This document shows positions 7,301-48,894 of a stretch of DNA of 64,000 bases, one piece after another. The stretch is from Thermoplasmatota archaeon. Its GTDB lineage: Archaea > Thermoplasmatota > Penumbrarchaeia > Penumbrarchaeales > Penumbrarchaeaceae. Under the pieces are notes generated by a model that was not told the DNA's origin, did no database searches, and was given only the letters and a program-made list of their open reading frames with translations. Both the position numbers and the translations under genes were made by a program. Location of the stretch: NCBI GenBank assembly GCA_046483845.1, contig JAWOCK010000027.1:11738-75737 (forward strand), written 5' to 3'. How positions within the stretch are numbered: position 1 is the stretch's first letter; each line of letters begins with the position of its first letter.

Positions 7301-7309
7301 TATATTCAC

Positions 7310-10423: not shown

Positions 10424-10484
10424 TTTTGCTCTCCGATCGAAAGTTGAGAGGCATATGGTACTAATTATTTTTTATCCTAAGTGA

Positions 10485-11531: not shown

Positions 11532-11639
11532 TCTATCACCTTTTGAACAGGAAGCATGTAAGCTTTCTTCCTATTTTATTGTATCCAAGTAGAAAATATA
11601 AAGGAAAGGGGGATCGAGATCCCCCTGATTTAATTTGCC

Positions 11640-13844
11640 TCATTCGGTTATCTTGAGCTTTGCCCCACAATCTGGACATTTTATCCTAAGAGGCCTCTCC
11701 GGAGAATCGATCTCGATCTCTTCACCACATTTCGGGCAATCAATGTACTCCGGTTCATATTCCTCTTCTTCCTCCTCAACCTCTTCTTCTTCCTTCTTCT
11801 TTGAGGTTTTTTTGGACTTTTTCTTTTTGGGTTTTTCCTTATCTTCTGATTTTGATTTCTTCTTCTTCTTTGGTTTTTCCCCTGTCTTTTCACCAGTTGA
11901 TTTGGATTTTTTCTTCTTTGGTTTTTCCTCTTCTTCCTCTTTTGGCTTGGATTTCTTCTTCTTCTTTGGAGAACCCTTGATGGTACCCTTGGCGCCACAA
12001 TGTGGGCAGGTGATCTTCAAAGGTCTCTTTGGGGAGGTGATCTTTATGGGTTTTTTACATTTCGGACATTTGATGGTGACGGGTTCGTAGCCCTCTTCAT
12101 CCTCCCCGGACACTCCTGAGTATGCATCAGCAAATAAGGATTGGGACCTTTCGGTGAGTTCATCGATGGCTTTCTTCAATTCCTTTACGTTCTTGCCTTC
12201 CATTTTTTCCTTTAGGTCCTTTAGAGCTTCCTTTGTTTCCTTAACCTTCTTCTTATCTAACTTCTCCTTAAGCTCTGCCATGGCCTTTTCTGTTGAATAG
12301 ACCAATGCATCAGCCTGGTTTCGAAGTTCGGCCAGCTTCTTCTTCTTCTTATCAAGCTTCTCATACTTCTCGGCATCATCTATCATCTTGGATACCTCAT
12401 CCTCTGTTACTCCAGAAGATGGCTGGATGGTGATCTTCTGCTCCTTTCCTGTTGCAAGGTCCTTGGCTGAAACATTGACAATACCATTTGCATCAATATC
12501 GAAAGTAACCTCTATCTGTGGTACACCCCGCGGTGCTGGAGGTATCCCTATCAAATGGAATTTACCTAATGATTTATTATCTGATGACATCTCCCTTTCT
12601 CCCTGCACGACATGGATCTCTACAGATGTTTGATTGTCCTGAGCAGTGGAGAATATCTGGTTCTTCCTGCAAGGTATGGTGGTATTCCGCGGTATCAGTT
12701 TCGAGGTCAGACCTCCTACTGTTTCAACACCAAGGGATAATGGTGTTACGTCCAATAGGAGTACATCTTTTACCTCACCTGTTAGAACACCACCCTGTAT
12801 TGCGGCACCTACAGCTACGCATTCATCGGGGTTTATCCCTTTGTTAGGAGCCTTCCCGAAGAATTCCTTGATAAAGTTCTGGACTGCGGGCATTCTTGTA
12901 GATCCACCCACCAATAGGATCTGATGGATGTCCTTTGGAGTGATGCCAGCATCCTTCAATGATCTTTTTGTAGGTCCCTTGGTCGCATCGATCAGGTCCT
13001 CTGTCAAAGATTCGAACTTGGCCCTTGTCAGAGTATAATCTATATGCTTGGGCCCATCCTCATCAGCAGCAATGTAGGGAAGATTAATGCTTGTATCAAG
13101 CCTAGATGATAGCTCTATCTTTGCTTTCTCAGACGCTTCCTTTAGTCTCTGCATTGCATTTTTGTCTTCTCTCAGACTGATATCCGTTTCATCCTCGAAT
13201 TTTTCTATCATCCAATCCATAATACGAGCATCAAAATCATCACCGCCCAATAGGTTGTTCCCTGAGGTTGCCTTCACCTCGAAAACACCTTCTCCTATAT
13301 CCAGGATAGATACATCGAAGGTACCTCCTCCTAGATCGAATACTAGGATGGTCTGTTCGATCTCCTGCTTATCCAGACCATATGCCAGCGAAGCAGCAGT
13401 TGGCTCATTTATTATCCTCAACACATCGAGACCGGATATTCTACCTGAATCCCTCGTAGCCTGACGTTGAGGATCCTCAAAATATGCTGGAACAGTGATG
13501 ACGGCCTTATCTATATCCTCACCCAGATATTCCTGGGCATCTTTTTTGAGCTTTCTTAAGATCATTGCTGATATCTCTTGAGGTGTGTAGATCTTTTCAT
13601 CTACTTTGACCTTGTATTTTGTACCCATTTTCCTTTTGATCGATGAAATCGTTCTTTCGGGATTGGTAACTGCTTGTCTTTTTGCCACATGACCAACAAG
13701 GACCTCACCATCTTCTGTAAATGCCACAACGGACGGCATAGTCCTAGTTCCCTCAGCCGTTGGAATAACGACAGGCTCACCACCCTCAAGGACTGCCATA
13801 GCTGAATAGGTAGTCCCCAGATCGATCCCTATTACCTTTGCCAT
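11640..13844 (-). CDS. dnaK: Chaperone DnaK (Hsp70) with ~130-aa C-terminal extension: two zinc-ribbon motifs flanking a poly-Lys/Glu low-complexity tract
   Basis: [14 protein letters not shown].. canonical Hsp70 NBD and SBD. Strong SD AAGGAGGAG upstream. C-terminal tail [27 protein letters not shown]...KKKKK...[27 protein letters not shown]. Confidence 0.95.
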
Positions 13845-14020
13845 ATTAGAACTCCTCCTTTCGCATTGGTCTATTTTGATACGAACATCACAGTAGCGCT
13901 ATTTCCGGTATAAGAAACTAGCATATTATAGCTGTCTGTTTCAACTCTAAATTAGTATTTATAAATTTCCCCACCTCTCAAAAATCAGGGTAAATATCGA
14001 GATGTCTGGACAATACCATG

Positions 14021-14887
14021 TCACTCCTCATCCAATTCATCTACCTCATCAAGAACTTCGTCGATCTCCTCTATTTCGTCGATCTCTTCTATTTCACCGA
14101 TCTCGTCGACTTCTTCATCTCTCTCCTTCTTTTTCGACTTTTTCTTTCTTGGTTTCCCTCCCTTGGAAACCACGACCTTTGCCGGTCTCAATACGATTCC
14201 ATCCAATAGATAACCTTTGGACTCAACTCTTATAACAGTATTATCTGGAACGTCCTTCCTGTCCTTTATTTCAATGGCTTCATGGAAAGTTGGGTCGAAT
14301 CTTTCTTCCATTGGATCGACGATCTCCACATCATTGACCTCAAGGAGCTTGATGAGGCCTTTCTTTATTGACCCCACACCTTCATAGATCTTTTTCGCCT
14401 CGGAAGTACTTAATCTTTCTGCTTCCATCATTGCCCTGTCAAAATTATCCAACACTTCGATCAATCCCAGGATCAAATTCTTTGAACCCTGTTTGATTCG
14501 GCGTTTTACTTCATTATCTGTTCTCTTTTTAAAATTTTCAAAATCTTTTTGATTTCTGTTCAGTTTCTTTTCGTAAGCATTTGCCAATGCTATCTGCTTA
14601 TTTATATCCTCTTCGAGTTTCTCTTTATTCGATCTGAGATTTTCTATTTCGTCCTCCAACATTTCCAATTCATGTTCGTAACTTTTCTTTTCATCTTGAT
14701 ATTCTTTGAGCTCCTCCTTCAGTTTGGATATCTTCCCAAGGTAAATGGCCATCCTCCTCTTGACCCCTTCAGGTATAGGCGTCATCTTTGCCTTTTTTCC
14801 CGATCCAGCTTCTTTTGAAGTTTTCCTGTCCTTATTCTCATCTTCATCTTCCAATTCGAATTCCAAGTCATCTTCATCGGGATTCAT
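14021..14887 (-). CDS. grpE: Nucleotide exchange factor GrpE with acidic N-terminus and K-rich/acidic-repeat C-terminal tail
   Basis: GrpE core FENFKKR..LILGLIEVLDNFDRA..GYLLDGIVLRPAKVVVSK. ATG at 14887 preceded by GGTGGT. Tail KGGKPRKKKSKKKERDEEVDEIGEIEEIDEIEEIDE. Operon order grpE-dnaK-dnaJ. Confidence 0.85.
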   Translation of the reverse strand: MNPDEDDLEFELEDEDENKDRKTSKEAGSGKKAKMTPIPEGVKRRMAIYLGKISKLKEELKEYQDEKKSYEHELEMLEDEIENLRSNKEKLEEDINKQIALANAYEKKLNRNQKDFENFKKRTDNEVKRRIKQGSKNLILGLIEVLDNFDRAMMEAERLSTSEAKKIYEGVGSIKKGLIKLLEVNDVEIVDPMEERFDPTFHEAIEIKDRKDVPDNTVIRVESKGYLLDGIVLRPAKVVVSKGGKPRKKKSKKKERDEEVDEIGEIEEIDEIEEIDEVLDEVDELDEE

Positions 14888-15399
14888 TTGTACCACCAGT
14901 ACAATAAACAGAAAGCTTGAATGAATAGTTAGTAAATAATGATTTTGCTTTTTATCAGTATTCCACTGGTTTTTCATTTGTGGTCCGCACACTGGCCAGC
15001 CGGTCTCCCCAGATAGTAGGGGCCACAGATCCTATGCCTCCTAAAGCGAAACGGTATAGCGCCCTAAGGAAAATAGAAGTGCATGGATCCTAATGCAGGC
15101 TCCCGCGAAAAAGATCAGAATAAGATTTCAGCCATCTTTCGCCTTGCCATAAATTTATCAGCGATCAATTCGGGCGGGAAGAAAACGATGATAAATTGAT
15201 TCCCACCAACTCCCATTAGGATTTGAAACAAAACGCTGGTGGGCCCGCCCGGATTTTCTTCTTTCAGGTGAGATATCGTTGTGAAAATCTGCCACCATTG
15301 GAAGCTGGGACCCTAGGGTGTCAGACATATCAAAATCGAATGATATCAAAATGGATCTGCGATTTTGATTGTCCGGTCGGGCCCATCTCTACAATTGGA

Positions 15400-15417
15400 A
15401 TATTATTAAAAACAAGA
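15400..15417 (-). terminator. Oligo-T tract immediately downstream of tRNA-Pro (archaeal-type terminator candidate)
   Basis: Minus-strand sequence after the tRNA 3' end reads TCTTGTTTTTAATAATATT. Confidence 0.35.
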
Positions 15418-15490
15418 TGGGCCCGCCCGGATTTGAACCGGAGTCTATGCGTCCCGAACGCACAAGTATACCAAGCTAACCCACGGGCCC
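15418..15490 (-). tRNA. tRNA-Pro (anticodon CGG), 73 nt, no encoded CCA
   Basis: Reverse complement folds as acceptor GGGCCCG/CGGGCCC (7 bp), T-arm UCCGG-UUCAAAU-CCGGG, anticodon stem GUGCG/CGCAU with loop UUCGGGA (anticodon CGG). D-stem has one U:U mismatch. Confidence 0.75.
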
Positions 15491-15605
15491 ACGGTATGTT
15501 GGCAAATGAAATGAGGTAATATGAGTGGAACGGAGAATATGTTCCTACCTGTGCACCTCAGGACATGGAATGGGAACTTATTTTTAAAACCTTTGAAGGA
15601 AAGCA

Positions 15606-30685: not shown

Positions 30686-33163
30686 ATGGATATGCTGTTC
30701 GTTGACAATTTCGTCCGCACATTCTCCGTGGTTGCCCTGCTTATCATGCTGATAGCCCCCATGTCATCTTCCGGTGACGAGATGAGAAGTGGGGCAGGGG
30801 GTTTCTTTTCGGATGAGGAGATATACAGCTCCAGAAGGTCGCTCACAGGGGGAATGGATTCCGGAGATCCGGACCATGATGGCGATCTCGAGGTGGCCTT
30901 CTGTGATTTTGAGGGTAATGTCATGCTTCTGGAACCAACAGGATCCGGGGGCTTCGAGCCGAACTTCATATGGCAGGTGGAGGGAACTCAAGGTTCCAAC
31001 CGCACTCTCTTCGATCTGGTGATCCATGATCTTGACCCCGACAGACCCGGAGTTGAGATAGTAACCGCCGGAGATGTCGGACCGGAAGGCGAAAAGGATG
31101 TCTTTCTGCTGAGCTATGATGGCTCAAAATGGACCACGGATATCATTTACTCCAGTCCTTTCAAGACATTTGATATTGAGATAGGGGACATCGATCCAGC
31201 CCAGGGTGACGAGATCATCCTGTCTTCCTTCCAACATGAGGAGGATCTGGCCATCCGTTATCTCTGCCGATCGGATGATGGTTGGATCGCGAAAGAGATC
31301 CCCACAATCGAAGCACCGAAGGCAGTGACGGTGGCGGATGCTGACCCGAACATACCAGGAAAAGAGGTCTATGCCACCCTTGCCGGATGGAGTGACGAAG
31401 GGATTGAATCCCATCTAGCACAATACTTCAATGTGGGAGACCAATGGGAGGAGAATATCATCTATACACATCCTTCCGAACTGATAGCAAATGTGAAGGC
31501 TGGAGACCTCTGGAGCGGTCATGACGGGAATGAATTGATCATAACGGAATTGTCCGGATGGTGCAGATATTTCTATTACGATGGCACCGAATTCCAGATG
31601 GAGAATATATTCCAGGCGGATACGATATCGGGCTCCCCTTCGGGACTTGAAGGCCTTACAATTGGTGATTTCAATCCGCTCCACGATGGTGACGAGGCGA
31701 TGGTCACCGGATATTACAATAAAGTCACTCAGATCATCGAATCAGATGGTGAGCTCATTGCCGATCTTGCATGGGAAAAAGAAGTGGACAATCCAAGGAT
31801 GGAGATCAACGGTGTGGAAGTATGTGACGTTTTAAGCGATCATGAGGGGAATGAGGTACTTGTCGCATCACTGCAGGGCTGGATACAGCTTCTTGCGTAT
31901 GAGGAGGACGGCATCGTCCTGGAAGCCACGAAGAATGAGATCGATCTCTTTGTGGGGGGAACCGCCGAGATAGACCTCACCATAAGATCGAGAGGCATGT
32001 ACACGGGACCAGTAATGCTATCGGCGGAGCCGTATCCGGGACTGTCCATCGATATCCCGATACTTGATGATCTCGAGCAGCAGGAGACCCGGGAATTCAC
32101 AGTGGACATCGAGGCACTTGAGGATTTCGAGGGCCCATCGGAAGTGGAGCTCACGTTCACCGCTGTCTCCGGCTCTCATTCGTCCTCCGTGGATATAATG
32201 GTCAATGTAAATGCGGACGTTCAACTGATCATAACTCCCCAGGTCGGAACCCTTTACAAGGAAGGGGGGGTGACCCATATCTCCAAATTATCGCTTCTGA
32301 ATGCTTACCAATACGATTATCTGGAGATCTCCACAGGAGAAGTGGAAGGTATGGAGGTCCATGCCAATACCCCGATCTCCCCGGGTCAGGAACAGGAGAT
32401 AACCATCAACGTTCGGGGTGATCCGAAAATAGGTTCCTATTCAATACCGATCACTGCATCCTACAGCGGTATTACCGTCTCCCAGGGGTCCATCGTGATC
32501 GAGATGGTCTCCTTGGCAGAAAGCTTCGAGAGTTCCGTGAGGGAGGTGACAGGTGAGAAGAACATGTACCTAGCCGAGGTATCCTTCCACGGACCAAGGG
32601 AAATAAATATGGTCAACGTGGATATCTGGGTAGGCGATCACAAGGTCTATTCGGACGGCTTGGACTTCTCTGTCGGGGAGACCTTTACCCAGATCTTCTC
32701 CCTTGATGAGTATACGGAAGGGTTGGTCAGGATAGAGCTCTCCACCCTTGCAGGATCCAATATCCGTTCGGATTCCTTCATGGAGCTGGAGTATGTACCC
32801 GATGAAAAGCAGGAGGACAGTCCTGCACTGGTCTTCATTGCCGCTTCCATCGTCGTTGTTCTGATCATTGTTCTTCTGCTTCTGCTCATATTCTACAAAC
32901 CCACACCCGAGGACAAAAAGGACGGTGAACTCCAGGATATCGGTTCCCCGAGCAGATATAAAGCCGGAAAGGGGCCCCTCGGGCCGCGAAAGGTTCCCAT
33001 CACCGGGAAATTGGACAGACCGAGGAGCGGAAAGGTATTCCATGACATCGATGAGAGAGAGAAGAATAGAAGGGGCAATGTCAGAAGAGCTCCGCCGCGA
33101 CCCAGGAGCATGGGGGAACCCCCGAGGGATGTCAGGAGAGCTCCCCCGAGGAGAAGGTTTTAG
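30686..33163 (+). CDS. Cell-surface beta-propeller (FG-GAP/VCBS-like) protein, paralog of the window-start ORF; signal peptide, Ig-like region, C-terminal TM and Arg/Pro-rich cytoplasmic tail
   Basis: Signal peptide MDMLFVDNFVRTFSVVALLIMLIAPMSSSG. Repeats DLDPDRPGVEIVTAGD, IGDIDPAQGDEIILSSF, VADADPNIPGKEVYATLAG (the last nearly identical to VADIDKDIPGKEIYAST in ORF 1..2343). TM IAASIVVVLIIVLLLLLIFY. Tail RRAPPRPRSMGEPPRDVRRAPPRRRF. Confidence 0.6.
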   Translation: MDMLFVDNFVRTFSVVALLIMLIAPMSSSGDEMRSGAGGFFSDEEIYSSRRSLTGGMDSGDPDHDGDLEVAFCDFEGNVMLLEPTGSGGFEPNFIWQVEGTQGSNRTLFDLVIHDLDPDRPGVEIVTAGDVGPEGEKDVFLLSYDGSKWTTDIIYSSPFKTFDIEIGDIDPAQGDEIILSSFQHEEDLAIRYLCRSDDGWIAKEIPTIEAPKAVTVADADPNIPGKEVYATLAGWSDEGIESHLAQYFNVGDQWEENIIYTHPSELIANVKAGDLWSGHDGNELIITELSGWCRYFYYDGTEFQMENIFQADTISGSPSGLEGLTIGDFNPLHDGDEAMVTGYYNKVTQIIESDGELIADLAWEKEVDNPRMEINGVEVCDVLSDHEGNEVLVASLQGWIQLLAYEEDGIVLEATKNEIDLFVGGTAEIDLTIRSRGMYTGPVMLSAEPYPGLSIDIPILDDLEQQETREFTVDIEALEDFEGPSEVELTFTAVSGSHSSSVDIMVNVNADVQLIITPQVGTLYKEGGVTHISKLSLLNAYQYDYLEISTGEVEGMEVHANTPISPGQEQEITINVRGDPKIGSYSIPITASYSGITVSQGSIVIEMVSLAESFESSVREVTGEKNMYLAEVSFHGPREINMVNVDIWVGDHKVYSDGLDFSVGETFTQIFSLDEYTEGLVRIELSTLAGSNIRSDSFMELEYVPDEKQEDSPALVFIAASIVVVLIIVLLLLLIFYKPTPEDKKDGELQDIGSPSRYKAGKGPLGPRKVPITGKLDRPRSGKVFHDIDEREKNRRGNVRRAPPRPRSMGEPPRDVRRAPPRRRF

Positions 33164-33231
33164 TTAAAAACCTTTAAGTAAAAATAGCACTTTGCCCCCA
33201 TTCCTGAGTGACCTGAGCTTTGATTTTTTCT

Positions 33232-33351
33232 GTCGGGGTGGCTCAGCCTGGTGGAGCGCCGGACTCATAGGGGCCCTCGTGGCAATTCTTATTGCTCCCA
33301 GGATCCGGAGATATCCGGAGGTCGCGGGTTCAAACCCCGTCCCCGACACCA
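33232..33351 (+). tRNA. tRNA-Met or tRNA-Ile2 (anticodon CAU) with ~43-nt intron at canonical 37/38 position; CCA encoded
   Basis: Acceptor GTCGGGG/CCCCGAC, D-arm GCTC-AGCCTGGTG-GAGC, anticodon stem CCGGA/TCCGG with loop CUCAUA|intron|A (anticodon CAT at ~33266-33268). Intron ~33270..33312, containing TCCGGAG complementary to exon sequence (BHB-like). T-arm GCGGG-TTCAAAC-CCCGT, discriminator A, CCA. G1:C72 suggests elongator or Ile2 rather than initiator. Confidence 0.75.
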
Positions 33352-33418
33352 TGCATGGTTGCGACTGCGTCGCAATCATGCTTCGGTAGCTGTCAGTGAC
33401 GTAGGGGTTTGAACCTCA
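33330..33418 (+). repeat. 89-bp direct repeat copy 1 (starts inside the tRNA 3' end; 11-12 nt terminal inverted repeats)
   Basis: tcaaaccccgtccccgacaccatgcatggttgcgactgcgtcgcaatcatgcttcggtagctGtcagtgacgtaggggtttgaacctca. Termini GGTTCAAACCCC / GGGGTTTGAACC are inverted. Internal palindrome TTGCGACTGCGTCGCAA. Confidence 0.8.
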
Positions 33419-33542
33419 TTCAGCATCCTGCCAGCAGTTCAGGTCTTGGAAGTTTGCGCTAGAAGAATTGACGATATGCAAACTTGCAAGTGCGCACCAT
33501 TCCGTCTCGTCAACGATATGGGATCGAGGAATTGCTGCTGCA

Positions 33543-33631
33543 TCAAACCCCGTCCCCGACACCATGCATGGTTGCGACTGCGTCGCAATCATGCTTCGGT
33601 AGCTTTCAGTGACGTAGGGGTTTGAACCTCA
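33543..33631 (+). repeat. 89-bp direct repeat copy 2 (88/89 identical to copy 1)
   Basis: Identical to 33330..33418 except one G/T difference; lacks the 5' half of the tRNA. Confidence 0.8.
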
Positions 33632-33640
33632 GTTATTGAT

Positions 33641-33883
33641 GTGAAATTGGTCCAGGTGGTTGAGCATTTGAAATTATTTCAAGGAGAACAAGGAGAGGAT
33701 GATATACGATTTTTTTGGAGCAAGAAACTCCCAATTGGAAGTGGGCCAATGGAAAGCGGAATAAGACAGGTTGTGAATATGAGGTTGAAAAGTGCTGGGA
33801 TGTTCTGGAAGAAGGAAAATTCGGAAGGGACACATAGACCCAACAGATCTCAATCCCATCATCAGGTAGATGGGAAAAAGTGA
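33641..33883 (+). pseudogene. Remnant of a DDE transposase C-terminus (ISLre2-like motif by recollection)
   Basis: LPIGSGPMESGIRQVVNMRLKSAGMFWKKENSEG matches the conserved C-terminal IGSGxxESxxRxVxxxRLKxxGMxW signature of a DDE transposase family. Only ~50 aa of transposase-like sequence with no upstream catalytic domain, so a fragment. Confidence 0.5.
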
Positions 33884-33960
33884 TACATGATCCATAGGGA
33901 CATCTGTGGTCATATCATGGTGGCATATATTACCGTATAGCAGATATTACGATAGACTTA

Positions 33961-33977
33961 ACGATATCGTTAAATAT
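33961..33977 (+). promoter_or_regulatory. TATA-like box (TTAAATAT) with adjacent perfect 10-bp palindrome ACGATATCGT, ~25 bp upstream of the 34000 ATG (leaderless-type arrangement)
   Basis: acgatatcgttaaatatccc immediately upstream of the start at 34000. Confidence 0.3.
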
Positions 33978-33999
33978 CCCATAACATTTATGTTATGAT

Positions 34000-35268
34000 A
34001 TGAAGATGGCGGATCTCCTTAGGATGTTGCAAAACGGTGAAAGCGATCGCCTGGAGTTCAAATCCAAGGTGACAGGTTACATTGGCGAGGAGATAATCGC
34101 CCTGGCAAATGCATTCGGTGGAACCATTCTGGTGGGAGTGAGCGACGATGGCAGGATAAAGGGTGTTAATGCCAGGAGAGCAAAGGAAAAGGCAACCCGG
34201 TACACCACCAACATCGTTCCTCCGATAAAGATATCGTTTGATATGGTCGATGTGGATGAGAAAGAGATACTTATCATCGATGTCCCACGTGTCAATAACA
34301 TCTGTTCGATCGGTGGAGTTGCCTATGTGAGAATAGGAACATCCAAGAGGCCTCTGTCGATCCAGGAGATCTTCACCATGGGGACGGAAAACCTTCTCTA
34401 TGAGATTGACAGGACCCCGACAGAGGAAAAGGAATTTGACAGAGACCTTGTTGATGATATTCTGGGATCCACCGATGAGAACAGAATGGAGGTTCTGAAA
34501 AGGATAGGTGCCATCGATAAGGATGGTTTCCTTACCCTAGCAGGTTTGCTGTTCTTTCACGAGGATCCCCAATCGATGCTCCCCCATTCATCGGTCAGGG
34601 TGATGATGGAGGGAGAAAGGTGGAAGAGGTATTCGGGTCCCATGGTCAAGGTGATAAGGGAGATAGAGAAGGACCTGGAACAACATATGGGCAGGATATC
34701 GATTCAGGTAGGTTTCAGAAGGATCGATATTCCGGAATTTCCAATGAAGGCTCTCAGGGAAGGGATAGTCAATTCCATAACACATCGAAACTATGCGATA
34801 AAATCCGAGGTGTTCATCGAGATCGGCAAGGACCATATCGAAATTCGGAATCCGGGATCGTTCCCACCTGGAACATCACCAGAGGAACCCATGCCTGTTC
34901 CAAGGAATCCAGTGCTGTACGAATTGATGTTCAGGGCGGGATATGTTGAAAGGCAGGGAAGAGGGATAGATCTCATATCGAAGGAATGTGAGGATCATCC
35001 CCTGGCCGAATTCAGGTACATTCTTACTGCCAATGCGACCAGATTGAGATTTGAAAGGTCCGACAAGGGACTTTCGGATGAACACAGGCATCTTCTGAAT
35101 TTCATTGGAGAAGAGGAAATGTCATCCACAAGGATCGCAGAAGAACTGGGTATCAGCAAACCTACGGTGCTTAGAAAGCTGAACGATCTCATTGAGATGA
35201 ACCTTGTAAGGAAGAAGGGGAATGGACCCGGGACAAGATATGAACTGACCGGAAAACTCAGAAAATAG
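34000..35268 (+). CDS. AlbA_2 (Schlafen-like putative DNA-binding) + HATPase_c_4-like + C-terminal wHTH regulator
   Basis: ESDRLEFKSKVTGYIGEEIIALANAFGGTILVGVSDDGRIKGV is the AlbA_2 (PF04326) signature. C-terminal HTH MSSTRIAEELGISKPTVLRKLNDLIEMNLV. Confidence 0.65.
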   Translation: MKMADLLRMLQNGESDRLEFKSKVTGYIGEEIIALANAFGGTILVGVSDDGRIKGVNARRAKEKATRYTTNIVPPIKISFDMVDVDEKEILIIDVPRVNNICSIGGVAYVRIGTSKRPLSIQEIFTMGTENLLYEIDRTPTEEKEFDRDLVDDILGSTDENRMEVLKRIGAIDKDGFLTLAGLLFFHEDPQSMLPHSSVRVMMEGERWKRYSGPMVKVIREIEKDLEQHMGRISIQVGFRRIDIPEFPMKALREGIVNSITHRNYAIKSEVFIEIGKDHIEIRNPGSFPPGTSPEEPMPVPRNPVLYELMFRAGYVERQGRGIDLISKECEDHPLAEFRYILTANATRLRFERSDKGLSDEHRHLLNFIGEEEMSSTRIAEELGISKPTVLRKLNDLIEMNLVRKKGNGPGTRYELTGKLRK

Positions 35269-35534
35269 ATGTTCATATAAAGGTCCTTTCCCACGATCCT
35301 CTGAGGGCCATCTACTCCAATTATTATCTAATATCAGCTTGGAGATATTTTCTTGAAAAGGAGTTTTTCCGTCTGACCCTGTTTTTCCTGATTCAATGTC
35401 CGCCCTCTTTTGATCTGAGAAATTCTTATTGTCCATTTTGATTGAAGGCAGCATATGTGTTGTGATTGTCACAATAGAAAATGGCAAGGAACAGTAACTT
35501 ATAGATGAATCGATTATAGGACCGGGGGTCAAGC

Positions 35535-37736
35535 ATGGAGGATATAAAGGGAACGATGATGGGATTCTTTATTGCAATGATAATAATGGTAGCGCCATTG
35601 ATGGTCATTTCCGCCGATTCGGTACCGCATTCGGGTTGGGGAATTGACGAACTCATAGAAACCGGAGATTCCGGAGATGCCATGTATCCACAGGTTGACC
35701 TTGACGCATCGGGGAATGCCGTGGCCGTGTGGCAACATTACGACGGCACCCGTTACAATCTCTATTCCAATAGATACAATGCGGATATTGGTTGGGGCAC
35801 CGAGGAATTGATCGAGACGGACGATTTAGGACATGCTCAATATCCTCAAATTGCGATGGATGGATCTGGCAATGCGGTGGCGGTATGGTATCAACATGAT
35901 GGCACCAGGAACAATATCTGGTCCAATCGGTACACGGTGGGTGTCGGATGGAATGAGGCGGAACTGATCGAGAGCGATGATTTAGGACATGCTCAATATC
36001 CTCAAATTGCGATGGATGGATCTGGCAATGCGGTGGCGGTATGGTATCAACATGATGGCACCAGGAACAATATCTGGTCCAATCGGTACACGGTGGGTGT
36101 CGGATGGGGCACGGCGGAACTGATCGAGACTGATAATACCGGATATGCTTTGAGTCCACAGGTTGAAATGGACCCATCAGGGAATGCCGTGGCCGTGTGG
36201 CAACATTACGACGGCACCCGTTACAATCTCTATTCCAATAGATACACTAAAGGAACAGGGTGGGGCTCGGCGGAAATAATTGAAGATGAGCAAGGTACTG
36301 TGTCCGGTTCGCAGGTTGCCCTTGACGGATCAGGTAATGCGGTGGCGGTATGGTCTCAATCCGATGGCCTCCGAAACAACATCTGGTCAAATCGGTATGC
36401 GGCAGATAGCGGTTGGGGCGAGGCGGAACTGATCGAGACGGACAATTCCGGATCTGCTTACAATCCGCAGATTGTAATGGACGGATCAGGAAATGCTATG
36501 GTGGTGTGGAGGCAGCCGAGCGGTGGGCGGAACAGCATCTGGTCCAATCGGTACACTGTGGGTGCCGGATGGGGCACGGCGGAACTTATAGAGACTGATA
36601 ATTCCGGACATGCTCAATATCCTCAAATTGCAATGGACGGATCTGGCAATGCGGTGGCGGTATGGTCTCAATCAGACGGGACCCGTTACAACATCTTGTC
36701 CAATAGGTACACGGAGGGTGCCGGATGGGATGAGGTGGAACTGATCGAGACGGTCAACTCCGGAGATGCTTTCAGGCCACAGATTGCCATTGAAGGATCT
36801 GGCAATGCGATGGCGGTATGGCACCAACATGATGGCACATTTTTGAATATCCGGGCGAACAGGTTCGTGATGCCCGATACAACTCCCCCGACCCTTGCGG
36901 TATCCTCTCCCGAGGATGGATCGGATACCGATGTTCCGGTTGTTACGGTTCATGGCACCACCGAGCCGGGATCCATCCTGAGCATAAACGGAATAATCGC
37001 AGAGGTGAGATCTGACGGGTCCTTTTCCTGCAACATTTCTCTTATGGATGGAGAAAATGCGATCGTGATAACTTCAATGGACGAATGGGAGAACAGAGAG
37101 ACAATAACAAGGACCGTGACATACAACGACCCCATCCCATCCATCCAATCTGATATCATAACTGCTTTCAATACCCTGGCTTCTTTGGGGTCCGACATCG
37201 ATTCGATCCTGGACCAGCTGGACTCGGTCACTGACAGATTGGATTCGATGGAAGATGATCTGAACTCATCGGAAGATGAGATCGCTTCCCTGCGTGAGAA
37301 CCTGACGGGATTGATATCGAAATTGAATGTTACCGAAAATGAACTTGATTCCATCAGGTATAACCTCACGATTCTCGGGTCGGACCTCTTATCCAACGAG
37401 GAAGAGATCGATTCATTATCTTCGAATCTGGGGTCATTGATATTGGAGATAGAGGCCATAAACGGTTCACTGCCGTCGATGATGTCTGATGTGGAAGCGG
37501 CGAAAGACAGGATCGATACGCTGTCCTCAGATCTTGCTTCGTTGGAAACTGACATGGAATCCATGGATGATCTGAGCTCGGAGATGGATTCCGCTAATGA
37601 GGATATCGAGGGTTTGAGGATGATGAACATCATTCTGATGGTGGCCCTTGCCATCCTGATCATTGTGATGGTCGCCGGTTTCATGATAATGATGAAGAGA
37701 ACCTCACCGAAGAAGGAAGATGATCCATTCGAATGA
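35535..37736 (+). CDS. Secreted tandem-repeat protein (about nine ~52-aa repeats, likely propeller-like) with C-terminal coiled-coil-like Ser/Asp/Leu repeats and TM anchor
   Basis: Signal peptide MMGFFIAMIIMVAPLMVISADS. Repeat unit GWGxAELIETDxxGxAxxPQIAMDGSGNAVAVWxQxDGTRxNIWSNRYTxGx. C-terminal LDSVTDRLDSMEDDLNSSEDEIASLRENLT.. heptad-like. TM MMNIILMVALAILIIVMVAGFMIMM. Confidence 0.6.
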   Translation: MEDIKGTMMGFFIAMIIMVAPLMVISADSVPHSGWGIDELIETGDSGDAMYPQVDLDASGNAVAVWQHYDGTRYNLYSNRYNADIGWGTEELIETDDLGHAQYPQIAMDGSGNAVAVWYQHDGTRNNIWSNRYTVGVGWNEAELIESDDLGHAQYPQIAMDGSGNAVAVWYQHDGTRNNIWSNRYTVGVGWGTAELIETDNTGYALSPQVEMDPSGNAVAVWQHYDGTRYNLYSNRYTKGTGWGSAEIIEDEQGTVSGSQVALDGSGNAVAVWSQSDGLRNNIWSNRYAADSGWGEAELIETDNSGSAYNPQIVMDGSGNAMVVWRQPSGGRNSIWSNRYTVGAGWGTAELIETDNSGHAQYPQIAMDGSGNAVAVWSQSDGTRYNILSNRYTEGAGWDEVELIETVNSGDAFRPQIAIEGSGNAMAVWHQHDGTFLNIRANRFVMPDTTPPTLAVSSPEDGSDTDVPVVTVHGTTEPGSILSINGIIAEVRSDGSFSCNISLMDGENAIVITSMDEWENRETITRTVTYNDPIPSIQSDIITAFNTLASLGSDIDSILDQLDSVTDRLDSMEDDLNSSEDEIASLRENLTGLISKLNVTENELDSIRYNLTILGSDLLSNEEEIDSLSSNLGSLILEIEAINGSLPSMMSDVEAAKDRIDTLSSDLASLETDMESMDDLSSEMDSANEDIEGLRMMNIILMVALAILIIVMVAGFMIMMKRTSPKKEDDPFE
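35823..36107 (+). repeat. Tandem DNA repeat: two copies of a 129-bp segment (period 156 bp) inside the repeat-protein gene
   Basis: Copy 1 ~35823..35951 and copy 2 ~35979..36107 (gatttaggacatgctcaatatcctcaaattgcgatggatggatctggcaatgcggtggcggtatggtatcaacatgatggcaccaggaacaatatctggtccaatcggtacacggtgggtgtcggatgg). More diverged copies follow to ~36900. Confidence 0.8.
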
Positions 37737-42564: not shown

Positions 42565-45500
42565 ATGGCATCCATGGAACCTGCCGACCCCCGAACATGT
42601 GAACCCGAACCCGCTCAATCATATCAGTCGCGAGATTCAAATGACACCCTCTTCTCCGAAGAATTGTACAATCAGAATCTATCTGATGTTTCCGCTTGGG
42701 TCGAGCAGGCGGGAGGAGATTCTCAAAAGGCCTTTGCACGTGTTCTGATCGTCAACAACGGTCTATCGGCATTGCGTATCATTCAGGGGATCACATCCCT
42801 ATCCAACCTGATCTCCCAGGGTAAAGATGCTAACCTCATTCAAGCTGTGGCCATCGCCTCTGACGCAGATTGGGTTGGTGATTGTCCGGAAGATGCTATG
42901 CAGCGACCCAACTATTTAAAAGAACCCGATACAATAGTTGCCCGAATTCCCGGATCACGACCCAAGGACACCTATCAAAACCAGGATGAGGTAATTGCTA
43001 TCGCCCGAGAATACAGGTGCGATGCCATTGCTGTGGGTTGGGGGCACCTTGCTGAGAATTCCACCTTTGCCTCCCGCGTGGAGAAGGAGGGATTGATCTT
43101 CATCGGGCCACATGCAGAGGCGATGAGCCTGATGGGTGACAAGATCATGTCAAAGCTCATCATGGATAAGGCAGGGGTCCCGATGCTTCCCTGGAACGGA
43201 TCAAACATATCCCTCTCTGAGATCAGATCGGATGCAAAGGACCTGATCAAAGCCCGGGAAGAAGAGGAGGGCCCTCTTTCGGATACTGACAGATACGGCA
43301 TACTATTTGATCTGGCCTATGAACGGGTGGGAATAAAAAGCATTGAAACGGCCCGTTCAGTTATAAACTCAATAGACCTGCCCGTTGTCATCAAGGCCAC
43401 TGCAGGCGGAGGCGGTCGCGGTATTCGTTTCATCACAAATGACAAAGACCTAGAATCAGGATTGAATGCTGCTGTCTCCGAGGCATCAGCTGCATTCGGG
43501 AACGATACGGTCTTCATAGAAAAAGCAGCAGACCCTGGCTCGCGGCATGTGGAGGTCCAGATCCTGGCGGATACTTCTGGGACAGTGATAGCCCTCGGTG
43601 AGCGTGAATGTTCTATCCAGCGTCACAATCAGAAACTGATCGAGGAAAGCGGTGATGACATTCCCATAAGCGATGGGACCCGGCAGATCCTCAGAAGATC
43701 TGCCGTAGCTGCGGCAAAAGCTGCCAAATATGTGAATGCCGGAACCGTGGAATTCCTTGTTGATAAAGAGGGCAACCCATATTTCATGGAGATGAACACC
43801 AGGCTGCAGGTGGAACACATTGCCACGGAGGCAGTGTATCCCGGACTCGATCTTGTGGTAGAGCAGCTGAAAATTGCCATGGGGATCCCACTTGACCATG
43901 AATTGATATCATTAAGTGATTCCCTCACGACGGGAAAGCACAGTATTTCCGTTCGAATAACTGCTGAAAATCCCAATGCAGGTTTCAGTTCTCAAACCGG
44001 CACCATCGAATCACTCGACATTCCAAATCTGGGCCCAAACACACCTCGAGCATATTTCAGTTTCTCTCAGGGAGGAACCGTTCATTCCTTTGCGGACAGT
44101 CAGATCGGGCATGTGGTGAGCAGTGCACCAACCCGTGAGGTAGCAAGACAACATATGGTGGCATTTCTGAACAAATTACGCATCAAAGGTATCCTTACAA
44201 CCCTTCAATTCTCGTCTGCGATAATGCAGGATGCAGAGTATATTGACGGCACCGGCATCCATGTTAACTGGCTCAAGCAGAGGCTCGATGACGCTCGATC
44301 GAAGGTGGGCGCATACCTTGGGGGCTCAACCGTTAAACCCGAGCTGGGACTGGCGGCGGTTGCCATACTCGATTATCTCTTCGGGAAGGCAGAATCACAG
44401 AACAAGTTCCATGCCAATCTCTTATCCTCAAGGTCGATCCCTCCCAAACTCCTTGCGAACACAGGACTGACCCGTGTGAGATTCGGTGAACATCATTACA
44501 CTGTCATCGTTCGTGAGATAGCTGATGAGCGTTTTGAACTGATCCTTGGCAATGACCGGATCGTTGTCCGGTTCTGGGAACGTTTAGGTCCATCCCGTTT
44601 CATGATGGAGTACGCTGGTATGGTATACCAGATCCACCGGATAGATGAAACCTCCAGAACCCATATTGAAGTGGGCGGGCACACCTTCACCTTCGAGCGA
44701 GACCTTGACCCAGATGTATTTCGGGCACCTATGGCAGGAATTATTTCCTCTGTCGAGGTCGAGTCCGGGCAAACAGTTGGCTTGAAGGATACCTTATTTA
44801 CCATGGAAGCCATGAAAATGATCTCTTCCCTTGATTCTCCAAGGAATGCAACCATTGCAGAAGTTTATGTAAGTGCAGGTTCCGTTGTTGAAGTGGGAAC
44901 TCCGCTGCTCAAATTTTCAGAATCAGAGACTTCAGAATCGAAGAAGGGATCACCCTCCTCCGGAGCTGATACGGAAAAGAAAGGAACCCGTCTACATTTC
45001 AAGCATGATGTGACAGATCTGTCTTCCAGGCTTGAGAGAAAGTGGGCTGAGAATGGTGATCTCAAGATCTCCATAAATAATGACGATATCAGGACCTTGA
45101 TTGGAAATATCATGCGTGGTTATCAATATTCAAACCACTTTCTATACCTGCTGACAAAAGAGCTCACCGATATGAACGAACGGCTGGGTGACGAACAGTG
45201 GATATCTCTTGTCCGAGATACGATAGAAGCATTTTACAAGGATGAGCAATATTTCAAAGGGTCCACAACTCTAACAGAGGGACTATCCATTGCAGAAATG
45301 GAAGCTGGCATAACAGATGGTGATAAGTATGATATCGCCCGCTCCCACGGGAATTTACGTTCCAAGAAGATAGTGCTGCTAGAGTTACTTGAGCCCATTT
45401 CCTCAATGGATTTCGAATCCATTGTGCCCTATCTGAAAAAGCTGACAGAGCTGGGTTATTCATATAATTACCGCGATCTATCCACCCGTGCGGAGGAACT

Positions 45501-48500
45501 CATACATCTGATCCACCCACTCCACGAGAAACCCCTCGACCTTCATCAAGTAATGGATGATATAGTTGCAGCACACGAGTCGGGAGATACCTCTCTTCAG
45601 AATGGATTGATGAAAAATGTCATGGCGGCAACGGAATCAATGCTCTCTCAACTGATCGATTATCTTTTAACCGGTTCGGGATTTGCACGAAAGATAGCTG
45701 GAAAGCTGATCATCTTGCGTGCCTATAGACGCCATAGGAATCTGAGCTGTGAATATGAACATAAAAAGGACGGGAAACGGCTCTATGTATGGCGTTTCAA
45801 TGATGCTGATAATGGTAAGGACCGTATGGGTATAGTCAGCCTGGTTGAACATGGAGAGAATGTGATCCAGAGCCTGACCCGGATGTATGAGCGCCTTCAA
45901 CAGCTCTGGGTGGAATCTCCAGAACGTGCGGATCATTCGGGAGATGTTCTGGAACTGCTCATCCAATGGCCCCCTGATATAAAGAGCAGTGACGAACTGG
46001 CTCAATACTTGAGAGATATAGTGAACAAGGTCCTTGCAAATGAAGAACTAAGGCGCGTAACATTCGTTGTTCAAACCCCTCATGACCACATACCCGGTTT
46101 CTTCACATTCAGGCCTGATGGGGAGGAAAGCTGCTTGTATATTGAGGATGCGCTGAGCAGGAACCTTCATCCTTCCCTGGCTTACCTGCTTGATCTGAAA
46201 CAGCTTGAATCACTCAGATCGAACATTGTTAAACTACCATCTGCAGATCCTTTGATACATATCTTCCATCATCGTATACCGAATCCGCGGGGGGCGGAGC
46301 TGCCGGATATCGAGAACCGGATATTTGTTAGATGCGTGATAAGGAACTCCGAGATCACCATGGGTCCTGAAGGTTCTTCCTTCCCGGCGGCAGAAGAGGC
46401 GTTTGCCAGCTCGCTACGGCATCTGCGGGTCTCATATTCTGCAACTGGAGCCCGATCCCATAGTAATCAGATCTACCTGGCATTTGCAAAACCGATCAAA
46501 CTATCTTTTGAGGAGTATCAGAAGATCGTAAAACGAATGAACCGCCACGTGAGTGATTACGCTGATGTTGACCTGACCAGAACGGAGATACGCGGCCGTC
46601 TTGATTCCTGGCAGGCAACCGGTAAGAGCATCGATATGCTCCTGGTGGTGAATAATCCAACAGGATTGCTCACGGAGATGAAAGAATACGTTATAGACAC
46701 TTCTGTTATGAGCGGTGCCAAAAAGGTACAAATGCTCCTACCCTACAGTGAGTTTGTCAAGCAGCATGAAAAACAGGAATATACACCTTCTGAAGATCAA
46801 TGGATACCTTTCAGCGAGCTGATCAAACCGATGACCGCAGTGGACAAGAAGCGTGTTATCCGTCGTCAAAAAGGTAAGGTATACGTTTACGACAGACTCT
46901 CACTTCTTCGAAATGAGCTGGAATACATATGGTCCTCATCTGGAAAGGATAAACCTGATGATATACTGACCGTTCAGGAGCTGATAACCGACCCGGAAGG
47001 AGCTGTAGTTACCGTCGAACGGCCGCCGGGTAAGAATGATCTGTCAATTGTGGCATGGCGTGTCCGTATCAAGTCACCCGAGGCGGGATCTGGCCGGGAT
47101 CTGATCGTGGTTTCCGGGGATATGACACTCAAAGGCGGTTCGGTCTCCATGGAGGAGGACATTCTTTTTGCGGGAGCAGCCAGGATCGCCCGTGATGAAG
47201 GCATTCCGTTCGTATATTTCGCTGAAGGGAGCGGTGCTCGTATAGGCCTATCGACGATAGTTACCCAAAGGTTATCGTATGATGATGAAAAAGATGTGTT
47301 CTATGTTGACCGGAAAACATATTCTCTTTTGGAACCACTGGTAATCGGACATCGGGACGCGGAGAACACCTCGCGGTATATCATTACCTCGATCCTCGGA
47401 GGTTTGCCGGGTATAAGCATAGCAGAAGAGGATGAATATCTCTATGTTTCCGAAGCAACCTACAATCGGTTCAAAGATCGAATGACCGCACATCCGATCA
47501 CCGTCATGGTCGGCTCTGAAGAAAAGACACGTTGGGTGATCGATTCGATCGAAAAACAGTACCCTCTGATCAATTTCGAGAACCTCTCCGGTTCGGCGAT
47601 GATGGCAAGGGCTTGTTCGTTGACCTATCACAGTGTCCCCACGATGGCCGTCGTAACCGATACATGCACAGGTATCATCGCATATAATGTCCGTCTGTTG
47701 AAACGTATCATTCAAACCAGGAACTCGGAGATCATATTGACCGGATACAGAGCCTTGAACTCCCTCTATGGCGGCGATGATGTTTATTCCAGCAATCGTG
47801 AGCTTGGAGGGCCACATATCATGGGCCCGAATGGGCTGTCTCATCACATAGTAGACGATGAAGGTCAAGCATGTAAAACCGTTCTTTCCTGGCTTTCGGG
47901 CGTTCCGGTCAAGCGTGGATCTCCATCTCCCAAACTGGAAACGGAAGACCCGATCGAGCGGGACATTTCCGTTACACTCATAGGACCGGGCGGTCTTATC
48001 GAATCACCTCGTCCCGAGGCTGAACGACCTGTCCCCTATGATTCAATGGAGCTGGTCCGTACCATTTTCGATGAAGGTTCAACTCAGGAGGCCATGGAAG
48101 AATGGGGGAGCACCGTTCATGTGGGACGTGCAACCATTGGGGGTTATCCCATAGGTTTTATTTCAGTGGAGACCAGAACAGTCGAGAAGGTTGTGCCGGC
48201 CGATCCTTCAATTGAAGGGTCAGCACCTGTTGGGATCAACCAGTTTGGACAGGTATGGTATCCTGATTCTGCCTTCAAGACCTCCCAGTGGATACAGTTT
48301 ATGAAAAATGAACGCCGACCCCTTATCATCCTCCCCAACTGGCGTGGTTTTGCAGGTGGTAAGATCGATCTGTACGAGGAGATTGTTAAGTTCGGTGCCA
48401 TGATCGTTGATGAACTGGTATATTTCGACCTACCTGTTATCCTGTACATCCCTCCATATGCTGAACTGCGGGGAGGAGCCTGGGTGGTTATCGATCCGCA

Positions 48501-48894
48501 GATCAATCCTGACAAGATCGTCCTAATTGCTGATGAGCATGCGACCGGATCCATCCTTGAACCGTCTGGAATGGAGTCTGTTCCACTTATCCGGAGGCAG
48601 ATCAAGCGCGACATGATACAGCAGGATCCAACCCTGTCAAGATTATACGGAAACCGGACAAGATATGCCACGCAGATGGACCGTATCAAACAGATCGATC
48701 AGCAGATAGAGGAACGAGAGGCAGAGATCTGGCCGGAATATGTTAAAAAATGGACAAAGATCTTCCGGTTGCACAATACTGCAGAGCGGATGGGTGCTCT
48801 TGGGATCGCAGGGGAAGTAGTAGAGACGTCAAAGGCCCGTGAGGCGATCTTCAGAAATCTCATGAGTGGTCTGGAAAGGATCGACAATAGCTGA
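42565..48894 (+). CDS. acc: Eukaryote-type single-chain multidomain acetyl-CoA carboxylase (biotin carboxylase + BCCP + central region + carboxyltransferase), 2109 aa
   Basis: BC domain: ARVLIVNNGLSALRII, WGHLAENSTF, ATAGGGGRGIRF, HVEVQILADTSGTVIALGERECSIQRHNQKLIEE, NTRLQVEHIATE. BCCP: biotinyl-Lys motif EAMKM. CT domain: GGSVSMEEDILFAGAARIARDEGIPFVYFAEGSGARIGLS and GGAWVVIDPQINP. Domain order and length match eukaryotic ACC, not the bacterial multi-subunit type. Confidence 0.85.
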   Translation: MASMEPADPRTCEPEPAQSYQSRDSNDTLFSEELYNQNLSDVSAWVEQAGGDSQKAFARVLIVNNGLSALRIIQGITSLSNLISQGKDANLIQAVAIASDADWVGDCPEDAMQRPNYLKEPDTIVARIPGSRPKDTYQNQDEVIAIAREYRCDAIAVGWGHLAENSTFASRVEKEGLIFIGPHAEAMSLMGDKIMSKLIMDKAGVPMLPWNGSNISLSEIRSDAKDLIKAREEEEGPLSDTDRYGILFDLAYERVGIKSIETARSVINSIDLPVVIKATAGGGGRGIRFITNDKDLESGLNAAVSEASAAFGNDTVFIEKAADPGSRHVEVQILADTSGTVIALGERECSIQRHNQKLIEESGDDIPISDGTRQILRRSAVAAAKAAKYVNAGTVEFLVDKEGNPYFMEMNTRLQVEHIATEAVYPGLDLVVEQLKIAMGIPLDHELISLSDSLTTGKHSISVRITAENPNAGFSSQTGTIESLDIPNLGPNTPRAYFSFSQGGTVHSFADSQIGHVVSSAPTREVARQHMVAFLNKLRIKGILTTLQFSSAIMQDAEYIDGTGIHVNWLKQRLDDARSKVGAYLGGSTVKPELGLAAVAILDYLFGKAESQNKFHANLLSSRSIPPKLLANTGLTRVRFGEHHYTVIVREIADERFELILGNDRIVVRFWERLGPSRFMMEYAGMVYQIHRIDETSRTHIEVGGHTFTFERDLDPDVFRAPMAGIISSVEVESGQTVGLKDTLFTMEAMKMISSLDSPRNATIAEVYVSAGSVVEVGTPLLKFSESETSESKKGSPSSGADTEKKGTRLHFKHDVTDLSSRLERKWAENGDLKISINNDDIRTLIGNIMRGYQYSNHFLYLLTKELTDMNERLGDEQWISLVRDTIEAFYKDEQYFKGSTTLTEGLSIAEMEAGITDGDKYDIARSHGNLRSKKIVLLELLEPISSMDFESIVPYLKKLTELGYSYNYRDLSTRAEELIHLIHPLHEKPLDLHQVMDDIVAAHESGDTSLQNGLMKNVMAATESMLSQLIDYLLTGSGFARKIAGKLIILRAYRRHRNLSCEYEHKKDGKRLYVWRFNDADNGKDRMGIVSLVEHGENVIQSLTRMYERLQQLWVESPERADHSGDVLELLIQWPPDIKSSDELAQYLRDIVNKVLANEELRRVTFVVQTPHDHIPGFFTFRPDGEESCLYIEDALSRNLHPSLAYLLDLKQLESLRSNIVKLPSADPLIHIFHHRIPNPRGAELPDIENRIFVRCVIRNSEITMGPEGSSFPAAEEAFASSLRHLRVSYSATGARSHSNQIYLAFAKPIKLSFEEYQKIVKRMNRHVSDYADVDLTRTEIRGRLDSWQATGKSIDMLLVVNNPTGLLTEMKEYVIDTSVMSGAKKVQMLLPYSEFVKQHEKQEYTPSEDQWIPFSELIKPMTAVDKKRVIRRQKGKVYVYDRLSLLRNELEYIWSSSGKDKPDDILTVQELITDPEGAVVTVERPPGKNDLSIVAWRVRIKSPEAGSGRDLIVVSGDMTLKGGSVSMEEDILFAGAARIARDEGIPFVYFAEGSGARIGLSTIVTQRLSYDDEKDVFYVDRKTYSLLEPLVIGHRDAENTSRYIITSILGGLPGISIAEEDEYLYVSEATYNRFKDRMTAHPITVMVGSEEKTRWVIDSIEKQYPLINFENLSGSAMMARACSLTYHSVPTMAVVTDTCTGIIAYNVRLLKRIIQTRNSEIILTGYRALNSLYGGDDVYSSNRELGGPHIMGPNGLSHHIVDDEGQACKTVLSWLSGVPVKRGSPSPKLETEDPIERDISVTLIGPGGLIESPRPEAERPVPYDSMELVRTIFDEGSTQEAMEEWGSTVHVGRATIGGYPIGFISVETRTVEKVVPADPSIEGSAPVGINQFGQVWYPDSAFKTSQWIQFMKNERRPLIILPNWRGFAGGKIDLYEEIVKFGAMIVDELVYFDLPVILYIPPYAELRGGAWVVIDPQINPDKIVLIADEHATGSILEPSGMESVPLIRRQIKRDMIQQDPTLSRLYGNRTRYATQMDRIKQIDQQIEEREAEIWPEYVKKWTKIFRLHNTAERMGALGIAGEVVETSKAREAIFRNLMSGLERIDNS

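Follow-up and report, generated by a model that had tools for sequence, protein, structure and literature searches.

The 64,000-nucleotide stretch of contig JAWOCK010000027.1 that we analysed (the window), from an uncultured Thermoplasmatota archaeon, carries an 80-codon open reading frame (ORF) downstream of a tRNA-Met gene, annotated as a hypothetical protein (P0001) in a near-identical NCBI assembly. A first-pass annotation had reported this ORF and its translation, both of which we find as described, and had read it as the C-terminal remnant of a transposase from a decayed insertion sequence (IS). We find that it is a chimeric reading frame laid across a fragment of a transposase gene and not an intact gene, and that the feature as a whole is very probably a dead, non-autonomous scrap of an IS within a variable, tRNA-linked segment. 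The locus comprises the following features.

33232-33351, plus strand: tRNA-Met gene (CAT) with encoded CCA and an intron of 43-45 nucleotides (nt) at about 33270-33312; Rfam RF00005, 54.1 bits, E = 4.6e-10.
33330-33418, plus strand: direct repeat copy 1, made up of the last 22 nt of the tRNA (T-loop to CCA) and a 67-nt module.
33419-33542, plus strand: spacer of 124 nt between the repeat copies, with a hairpin at 33450-33485, conserved in related species.
33543-33631, plus strand: direct repeat copy 2, made up of a partial tRNA 3' end resembling an attachment (att) site (att-like core 33543-33564) and a second module.
33632-33668, plus strand: linker that joins repeat copy 2 to the IS fragment; its origin is uncertain, and it is weakly similar to IS copies.
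33641-33883, plus strand: the 80-codon ORF, from GTG at 33641 to TGA at 33883.
33669-33828, plus strand: internal fragment of an ISKra4-like transposase gene (blastn, NCBIfam NF033572), about residues 406-460 of 489.
33829-33886, plus strand: possible degenerate transposase sequence in another frame (SGRWEKVI against KSRRWDIIE or KSGRWAVVE), without statistical support.
34000-35268, plus strand: gene for an AlbA_2 (Schlafen-type)/HATPase_c_4/winged-helix regulator (Pfam), which is context and not part of the IS.

The descent of the fragment from a DDE transposase is evident at both the protein and the DNA level, and the transposase motif noticed in the first pass is not a product of chance. 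A Pfam scan of the 80-residue product gave zero matches even at E = 10, and an initial protein search with it gave only six short fragments; the family became visible only in an exhaustive profile search with C-terminal fragments, which reached 7057 cluster representatives and in which the full-length proteins, of 465-510 amino acids (aa), align at their extreme C-terminus (for example P0007, 484 aa, over residues 400-479; P and L numbers designate the proteins and loci compared). The short "homologues" P0002-P0006 are themselves pieces of decayed or truncated IS copies. The sole NCBIfam match of the ORF as called is the ISKra4 family transposase model NF033572 (E = 1.5e-8, 34.1 bits, profile positions 373-406 of 422), and with the frame corrected the match to this model extends to positions 357-407 (E = 9.7e-15, 54.6 bits). 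In DNA, positions 33669-33828 are 84-89% identical to IS copies over 158-161 nt, with sharp borders at 33669 and 33828: identity is 88.8% over 161 nt to an intact IS in L015 (blastn, E about 1e-53), 85.7% to L017 and L095-L100, and 84-87% to L016, L001, L094 and L101. The LPIGSGxxES...R...RLK...GMFW block, the region of the last catalytic-glutamate motif, sits within this segment, and from what is known of the family we take the E of LPIGSGxxES to be the DDE glutamate.

The same comparison reveals the damage. Relative to the intact IS copies, the fragment has gained one nucleotide near 33669-33676 (+1) and lost one from the T-run at 33710-33716 (-1), and these indels are private, being present in no intact copy. 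Three-frame translation places about 13 codons of the ORF (LFQGEQGEDDIRFF) outside the ancestral frame, which reads NYFKENKERMIYDFF, while the codons on both sides of this stretch are in the ancestral frame. The last 17 residues of the ORF (THRPNRSQSHHQVDGKK) and its stop codon are of non-transposase origin: after ...KKENSEG the family sequence FLHLRCYLKS.RW... has been lost from the ORF, and about 30 true C-terminal residues are missing together with the right end of the IS. Beyond the right border, 33829-33886 gave no matches in blastn, and the NCBIfam alignment stops short of this segment; on the left, the linker is possibly very degenerate transposase sequence (VVEHLK against VVKREMK). The earlier description of a C-terminal remnant therefore holds insofar as the piece comes from the 3' part of the transposase gene and fails insofar as it implied an intact C-terminus, since what is left is a 160-bp internal piece, truncated on both sides, with compensating frameshifts.

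The rest of the element is not to be found in the window. Searches with full-length relatives (tblastn with P0007, P0010 and pieces of L001) recovered nothing further of the transposase from the 64 kb, neither a transposase nor an integrase turned up when the large ORFs of the window were scanned with Pfam, and the left and right terminal repeats of the IS (IRL and IRR) are absent from the window even with up to 3 mismatches allowed. The first-pass observation that no upstream catalytic domain is present is borne out by these searches and scans; of the DDE core only the C-terminal glutamate-motif region remains, and the regions of both aspartates are missing from the window. Because of the frame damage and the loss of the IS ends, of both aspartates and of the other parts of the gene, the annotated 80-aa protein is a pseudogene fragment. 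Open frames of 60-100 codons are common among the non-coding frames of the window, and this one is an accidental open frame across the scrap, which cannot transpose and almost certainly encodes nothing useful.

By sequence comparison, we assign the fragment to an ISKra4-like and not an ISLre2 element. ISKra4 (p-MULT 4) and ISLre2/TnGBS (p-MULT 3) are related families of prokaryotic Mutator-like DDE transposases, and p-MULT 4 has been reported from seven bacterial phyla only (Guerillot et al. 2014, PMC3942029). For the window fragment ISKra4 is the best and only family match, with the C-terminal block aligned to profile positions 357-407 of 422, and it is also the best family for the intact relatives, with NF033572 scores of 170.7 bits for L015 and 151.7-170.0 bits for P0007, P0010 and P0011. 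Neither the fragment nor these intact relatives reach the curated cut-off of that model (205 bits), and since the scores of the intact relatives fall below it, we regard them as a divergent ISKra4-like branch. They differ from the described members also in setting, coming from archaeal contexts (this Thermoplasmatota genome, and one relative named from a Lokiarchaeota metagenome-assembled genome (MAG)) as opposed to the bacterial phyla of the published survey. The window copy itself, a 160-bp internal scrap without ends and without two of the catalytic residues, falls short of a functional IS in model score, catalytic core and inverted repeats alike, and belongs to the family by descent only.

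Intact relatives of the scrap show what the parent element would have looked like. Archaeal copies in metagenomes are about 1.63 kb long and, like other ISKra4 elements, have a single transposase gene (here 485-489 aa), terminal inverted repeats and many copies in differing contexts. In L015 an intact 489-aa transposase gene lies between two inverted repeats. The ends of the IS read GGGTGCAATCCC... and ...GGGGAATGCACCC; seven loci, drawn from no fewer than five distinct insertion sites, served to define IRL GGGTGCAATCCCATTT... and IRR ...CCTAGTTTTGGGGAATGCACCC, and the sites that were inspected by eye show no evident target-site duplication. One 485-aa transposase (P0155) recurs unchanged on 8 contigs, and among 6 of these at least 4 different flanking contexts can be told apart; such recurrence in distinct contexts is the signature of a recently active IS. 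At the other extreme, L001 is a decayed, frameshifted full-length copy and L002 a truncated remnant beside an IS66 element. The intact archaeal relatives constitute an undescribed multi-copy ISKra4-like group, which is unnamed in the papers that we consulted.

Some of these copies lie near tRNA genes. The intact IS of L015 (nt 98-1728) ends 155 nt upstream of the same intron-containing tRNA-Met (41 of 42 nt identical to window 33231-33272; IS and tRNA in L015:98-1925), the decayed copy of L001 lies 680 nt from another tRNA-Met, and L094, a 64-kb contig of an ENA assembly that is also at NCBI, has a copy whose transposase is frameshifted (410 + 67 aa) and which lies 4.2 kb from a tRNA-Lys (L094:1712-7478). 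A 695-aa large serine recombinase gene lies between that IS and the tRNA-Lys, which suggests an integrated element. The idea raised by these three loci, that the IS targets tRNA(CAT) genes, was rejected as a general rule: across the 236 kb of 90 loci that carry the IS, ARAGORN with introns allowed detected just 2 complete tRNAs, about the background density, and none in L016, L017 and L095-L101.

The surroundings of the scrap are as informative as the scrap. The tRNA-Met gene was missed by ARAGORN at default settings and found with introns allowed, and orthologues of it are present in L103, L104, L106 and L108. Its 3' end is the start of an 89-nt direct repeat, which begins in the T-loop and extends 67 nt past the tRNA; the two copies are identical at 88 of 89 positions (the mismatch being G at 33392 and T at 33605), where no such repeat is expected by chance. 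One copy completes the intact tRNA and the other is partial, as in an att duplication, and the tRNA-Met gene is the target of this att-like duplication. A third att copy is absent from the window. The 67-nt module that follows the tRNA end contains a 13-bp hairpin (33353-33381) together with the T-arm in reverse complement (GGGGTTTGAACC), and the spacer hairpin at 33450-33485 has the stem AAGTTTGC/GCAAACTT and a conserved loop, GCTAG..G.ATTGACGATAT.

Module and spacer (33352-33542; L104:8796-8986; L108:6819-7060) are conserved in at least three species. The spacer hairpin of L104 has a different stem (GGTATTTCC/GGAAATACC) with the loop unchanged, pairing in the hairpin at 33353-33381 is kept among the window, L104 and L108 through 6 compensatory pairs, and the T-arm complement of the module follows the A/G difference of the tRNA (TTCAAAC/TTCGAAC). 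Across three sequences, this hairpin covariation and tracking of the T-arm in the 191-nt unit is no more than suggestive. We found no second tRNA or tRNA-like gene in module or spacer on either strand (Rfam at E <= 1, ARAGORN -i), and the spacer ORFs have no Pfam match that would point to an integrase remnant. Exact DNA patterns for the hairpin, the spacer and the spacer loop gave 0 matches in viral contigs, and an exact pattern joining the tRNA end to the hairpin gave 0 matches in metagenome contigs.

Loci from related genomes, which we reached via the upstream 825-aa surface protein, place the att-like site at a break in synteny. L104/L105 and L108 share the order tRNA, module, spacer and second tRNA 3' copy with the window, at 76-80% identity to positions 33164-33565 (L104, 76% over 422 nt including the tRNA; L108, 80% over 344 nt), and in L104 and L108 the repeated part is the 20-22-nt tRNA end only. 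Homology with both stops at 33562-33565, right after the second tRNA 3' copy. Beyond that copy the window continues into the second module, followed by the IS scrap and the AlbA_2 gene; L104 carries repeats of the CCGACAC type and, at the position of the scrap and the AlbA_2 gene, a fragment of a reverse transcriptase on the minus strand (L104:9071-9339; GTPQGGVISPLLANLYLH, YADD; RVT_1, E = 6e-6); L108 has AT-rich DNA. By tblastn, the syntenic loci L104, L106 and L108 lack both the IS scrap and the AlbA_2 gene. The right anchor common to the window and L104 is a Glucodextran_B surface-protein gene (54% aa identity), which in L104 is reached within about 690 nt of the tRNA region, and no homology was found upstream of this anchor gene. 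The variable segment of the window, at about 33565-35500, is bounded on the left by the att-like tRNA 3' copy and on the right by the surface-protein gene at 35535-37736. The Glucodextran_B gene (plus strand) also has tandem repeats of about 52 aa, or 156 nt (...GNAVAVW.Q.DGTR.NI.SNRY...), and two near-identical assemblies differ in it by exactly one 156-nt unit (compared with L003:12165-12500).

The closest relative, L103, whose neighbouring surface protein is 61% identical in amino acids, has a single module followed immediately by GGGTGGTTGAGCATTTGAA, which corresponds to window 33654-33672 (GGTGGTTGAGCATTTGAA), and its contig ends exactly where IS homology would begin. Because the linker is shared with L103, the left junction of the scrap would seem to predate the split of the two species. 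The single module is compatible with loss of one 213-bp unit, and suggests that L103 lost such a unit by recombination between the repeats or that the lineage of the window regained one.

No site-specific recombinase gene lies in or beside the repeat-bounded segment of the window. In L106 (GCA_016928095.1, JAFGLL010000024.1; stretch 8054-9353), a gene for a 372-aa tyrosine recombinase (Phage_integrase) starts 64 nt after the orthologous tRNA-Met, and the DNA between the two contains repeated GAACCCC and CCGACA motifs. We consider this locus to be probably an intact integrated element at the same site. The former insertion or excision site that the first-pass annotation had proposed is thus supported by an att-like duplication of the tRNA 3' end with lineage-specific DNA right after its second copy, and the site is a tRNA-linked integration hotspot.

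In archaea, integrating elements are an established source of partial tRNA genes (van der Gulik et al. 2023, PMC9897764), and the arrangement seen here resembles those att sites in its T-loop-starting 3' repeat, in the intact tRNA at one end and the partial copy at the other, in the variable DNA beyond, and in the tyrosine recombinase beside the same tRNA in a relative. It differs from them in that only 191 nt separate the two copies in the window, that the window has no recombinase, and that the repeat runs 67 nt beyond the tRNA. It differs likewise from a plain att scar, in which a 191-nt unit conserved with covarying hairpins in at least three species would be unexpected.

The tRNA end recurs in other loci of this kind. 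The 22-mer from the tRNA 3' end is restricted to MAGs with the names Thermoplasmata, Thermoplasmatota or Thermoplasmatales, one "Methanobacteriota archaeon" and one Aenigmatarchaeota MAG. An identical NCBI entry for a protein neighbouring the locus is likewise named as Thermoplasmatota. Partial copies in L004, L010 and L011, from other Thermoplasmatota MAGs, and in L104 and L108 share the T-loop start position. In L011 (4238-6145), two such partial copies bracket a cassette of two genes (307 aa + 213 aa) that by eye is putatively AbiEii/AbiEi-like and adjoins an ORF of 1011 aa, putatively Cas3-like, again by eye; a similar arrangement, a partial tRNA accompanied by two cassette genes, is seen in L010, and L004 belongs to the same group of MAG loci. 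A 5'-side counterpart of the window repeats is seen in another Thermoplasmata MAG (L006:2803-3121), where three copies of the opening 23 nt of the same tRNA are spaced at 86 and 102 nt and the last of them starts the real tRNA.

A history can be proposed around what is directly observed, namely the homology and its extent, the damage to the frame, the missing IS ends and core, the intact copies elsewhere and the break in synteny after the second att copy. An ISKra4-like IS would once have stood downstream of the tRNA-Met gene; deletions on both sides would have removed its left 80% and its right end, leaving 160 bp from the 3' part of the transposase gene, and this remainder would then have acquired the +1 and -1 indels. 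The att-like repeat would have arisen when an element with a tyrosine recombinase integrated into the tRNA 3' end, and the 191 nt between the copies (module and spacer) would be the cargo-less remnant of such an element, or a miniature one. Remnants of this kind, att-flanked and cargo-less, exist elsewhere, for example the cis-mobilizable elements (CIMEs) of Streptococcus. The second module, the IS scrap and the AlbA_2 gene would be remnants of a further element, sitting in tandem at the second att copy, which later lost its distal end and its att site. We offer this tandem arrangement as an inference, since the window has neither an integrase nor a third att copy.

Several observations weigh against parts of this account, and other explanations of the fragment have to be set beside it. 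The two indels, 37 nt apart, together restore the frame and leave the ORF open for 80 codons, only 3 of 37 residues in the in-frame part (the LPIGSG...GMFW block, 34 of 37 identical to L015) differ from the intact relative, the ORF is called by a gene caller, and the left junction sequence recurs in L103, so that the scrap may be old yet well preserved. These points could hint at selection, and at an 80-aa protein domesticated from the transposase C-terminus and maintained as, for example, a DNA-binding or regulatory peptide. We nonetheless think domestication very unlikely: 13 internal codons lie outside the ancestral frame, the 17-residue tail bears no relation to the family, the short homologues are decayed or truncated IS pieces like those of L001 and L002, the fragment is missing from the syntenic loci, and the ORF, of a length common among non-coding frames of the window, has no Pfam domain. 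In the in-frame part, 6 of the 11 nucleotide differences to L015 are synonymous, as expected if the divergence arose mostly in active IS lineages. Nor does an origin of the fragment in an ISLre2-family element have much to commend it, and we rate it as highly improbable. Over this region the relatives do match the ISLre2 model (NF033529; E = 2.7e-10 for L015 and 1e-4 to 0.03 for fragments), they share the same general C-terminal motif, and L015 scores 23.2 bits against Pfam UPF0236, below its 24.3-bit cut-off; the two are, after all, sister families. But ISKra4 outscores ISLre2 for every sequence tested (170.7 against 40.1 bits for L015, with 30-48 bits against ISLre2 for P0007, P0010 and P0011, and overall 52-171 against 13.6-48 bits), and the window fragment matches neither NF033529 nor UPF0236. 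The first-pass identification of a C-terminal DDE transposase motif was therefore right and its attribution to an ISLre2-like family was not, ISLre2 being the weaker, secondary match; because the families are sisters, the motif was a sound lead all the same. Finally, a chimeric assembly, with IS-derived reads from other copies threaded into the contig, might be suspected from the Logan contigs, which break nearby (L102 inside the tRNA intron, L103 where IS homology starts). This is scarcely credible, as a second, independent assembly (CAYWLX010000004.1) is identical to the window over 31429-35381. That assembly is 99.94-99.96% identical to the window and differs from it elsewhere by 9 single-nucleotide polymorphisms, one 1-nt indel and one 156-nt repeat unit, and because it is distinct in this way and yet concordant here, the structure of tRNA, repeats and fragment is real sequence and not an artefact. 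Both flanks are moreover syntenic anchors found also in L104, and the indels of the fragment occur in no intact copy from which reads could have strayed.

Preferring, then, a dead ISKra4-like scrap, we must still ask whether its setting at an integration site is correctly read. The 89-nt repeat might have nothing to do with integration, being instead a local duplication, a structured RNA or an element of the tRNA trailer, and the IS might have decayed in ordinary intergenic DNA. The window offers no integrase, the tyrosine recombinase of L106 has as its best NCBIfam match a XerA/XerCD-like model at 186.5 bits, under the 220-bit cut-off, and could be a host gene and not an element integrase, the identity segment is long for an att core, the cross-species conservation of module and spacer, with hairpins preserved by compensatory changes, is what a functional RNA would show, and viral contigs contain zero matches to the module and spacer motifs. 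Against this, integration produces an A-B-A arrangement and one tandem duplication would not, the repeat shares its T-loop start with the partial tRNA copies in five other loci, and in L104 and L108 the repeat is confined to the tRNA end. Synteny, in addition, is lost precisely behind the second copy, the mobile-element debris found there differs between genomes, and the recombinase gene of L106 abuts the same tRNA. On balance we judge a repeat unconnected with integration to be unlikely, and retain the att-like reading of the site. What the 191-nt unit itself might be is a separate matter. It could conceivably be a miniature integrative element consisting of att arms only and mobilised or maintained by a recombinase in trans, or else a structured RNA co-transcribed with the tRNA, a proposal that we put forward tentatively and with considerable doubt.

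Two further parts of the window deserve mention. A 2109-aa ORF (42565-48894, plus strand) fuses biotin carboxylase, biotinyl carrier, ACC_central and carboxyltransferase domains in an acetyl-CoA-carboxylase-like, single-chain architecture that is, to our knowledge, unusual for an archaeon. Positions 1-15500 have a G+C content of 40-45%, against about 50% in the rest, carry GrpE-DnaK-DnaJ genes and end at a tRNA-Pro (15416-15491, minus strand); neither an integrase nor a transposase came to light in this region.

Taken by itself, the fragment is an ordinary genomic scar with no sign of function, and 33641-33883 should not be annotated as an 80-aa hypothetical protein. Its value lies in what it leads to. 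Through it we arrived at an intact, multi-copy ISKra4-like IS with defined ends in archaeal metagenomes, in a family group that had been described as bacterial only (PMC3942029). The att-flanked 191-nt unit with its covarying hairpins is a better target for follow-up than the scrap itself: if it is a miniature integrative element, it would provide another att site where later elements accumulate, and the IS scrap and the AlbA_2 gene would then be the remains of one later arrival. The scrap is a marker for the variable flank of a tRNA-Met integration hotspot within a clade of Thermoplasmatota, and the AlbA_2/Schlafen-type regulator that lies at this hotspot is accessory DNA and not part of the core genome.

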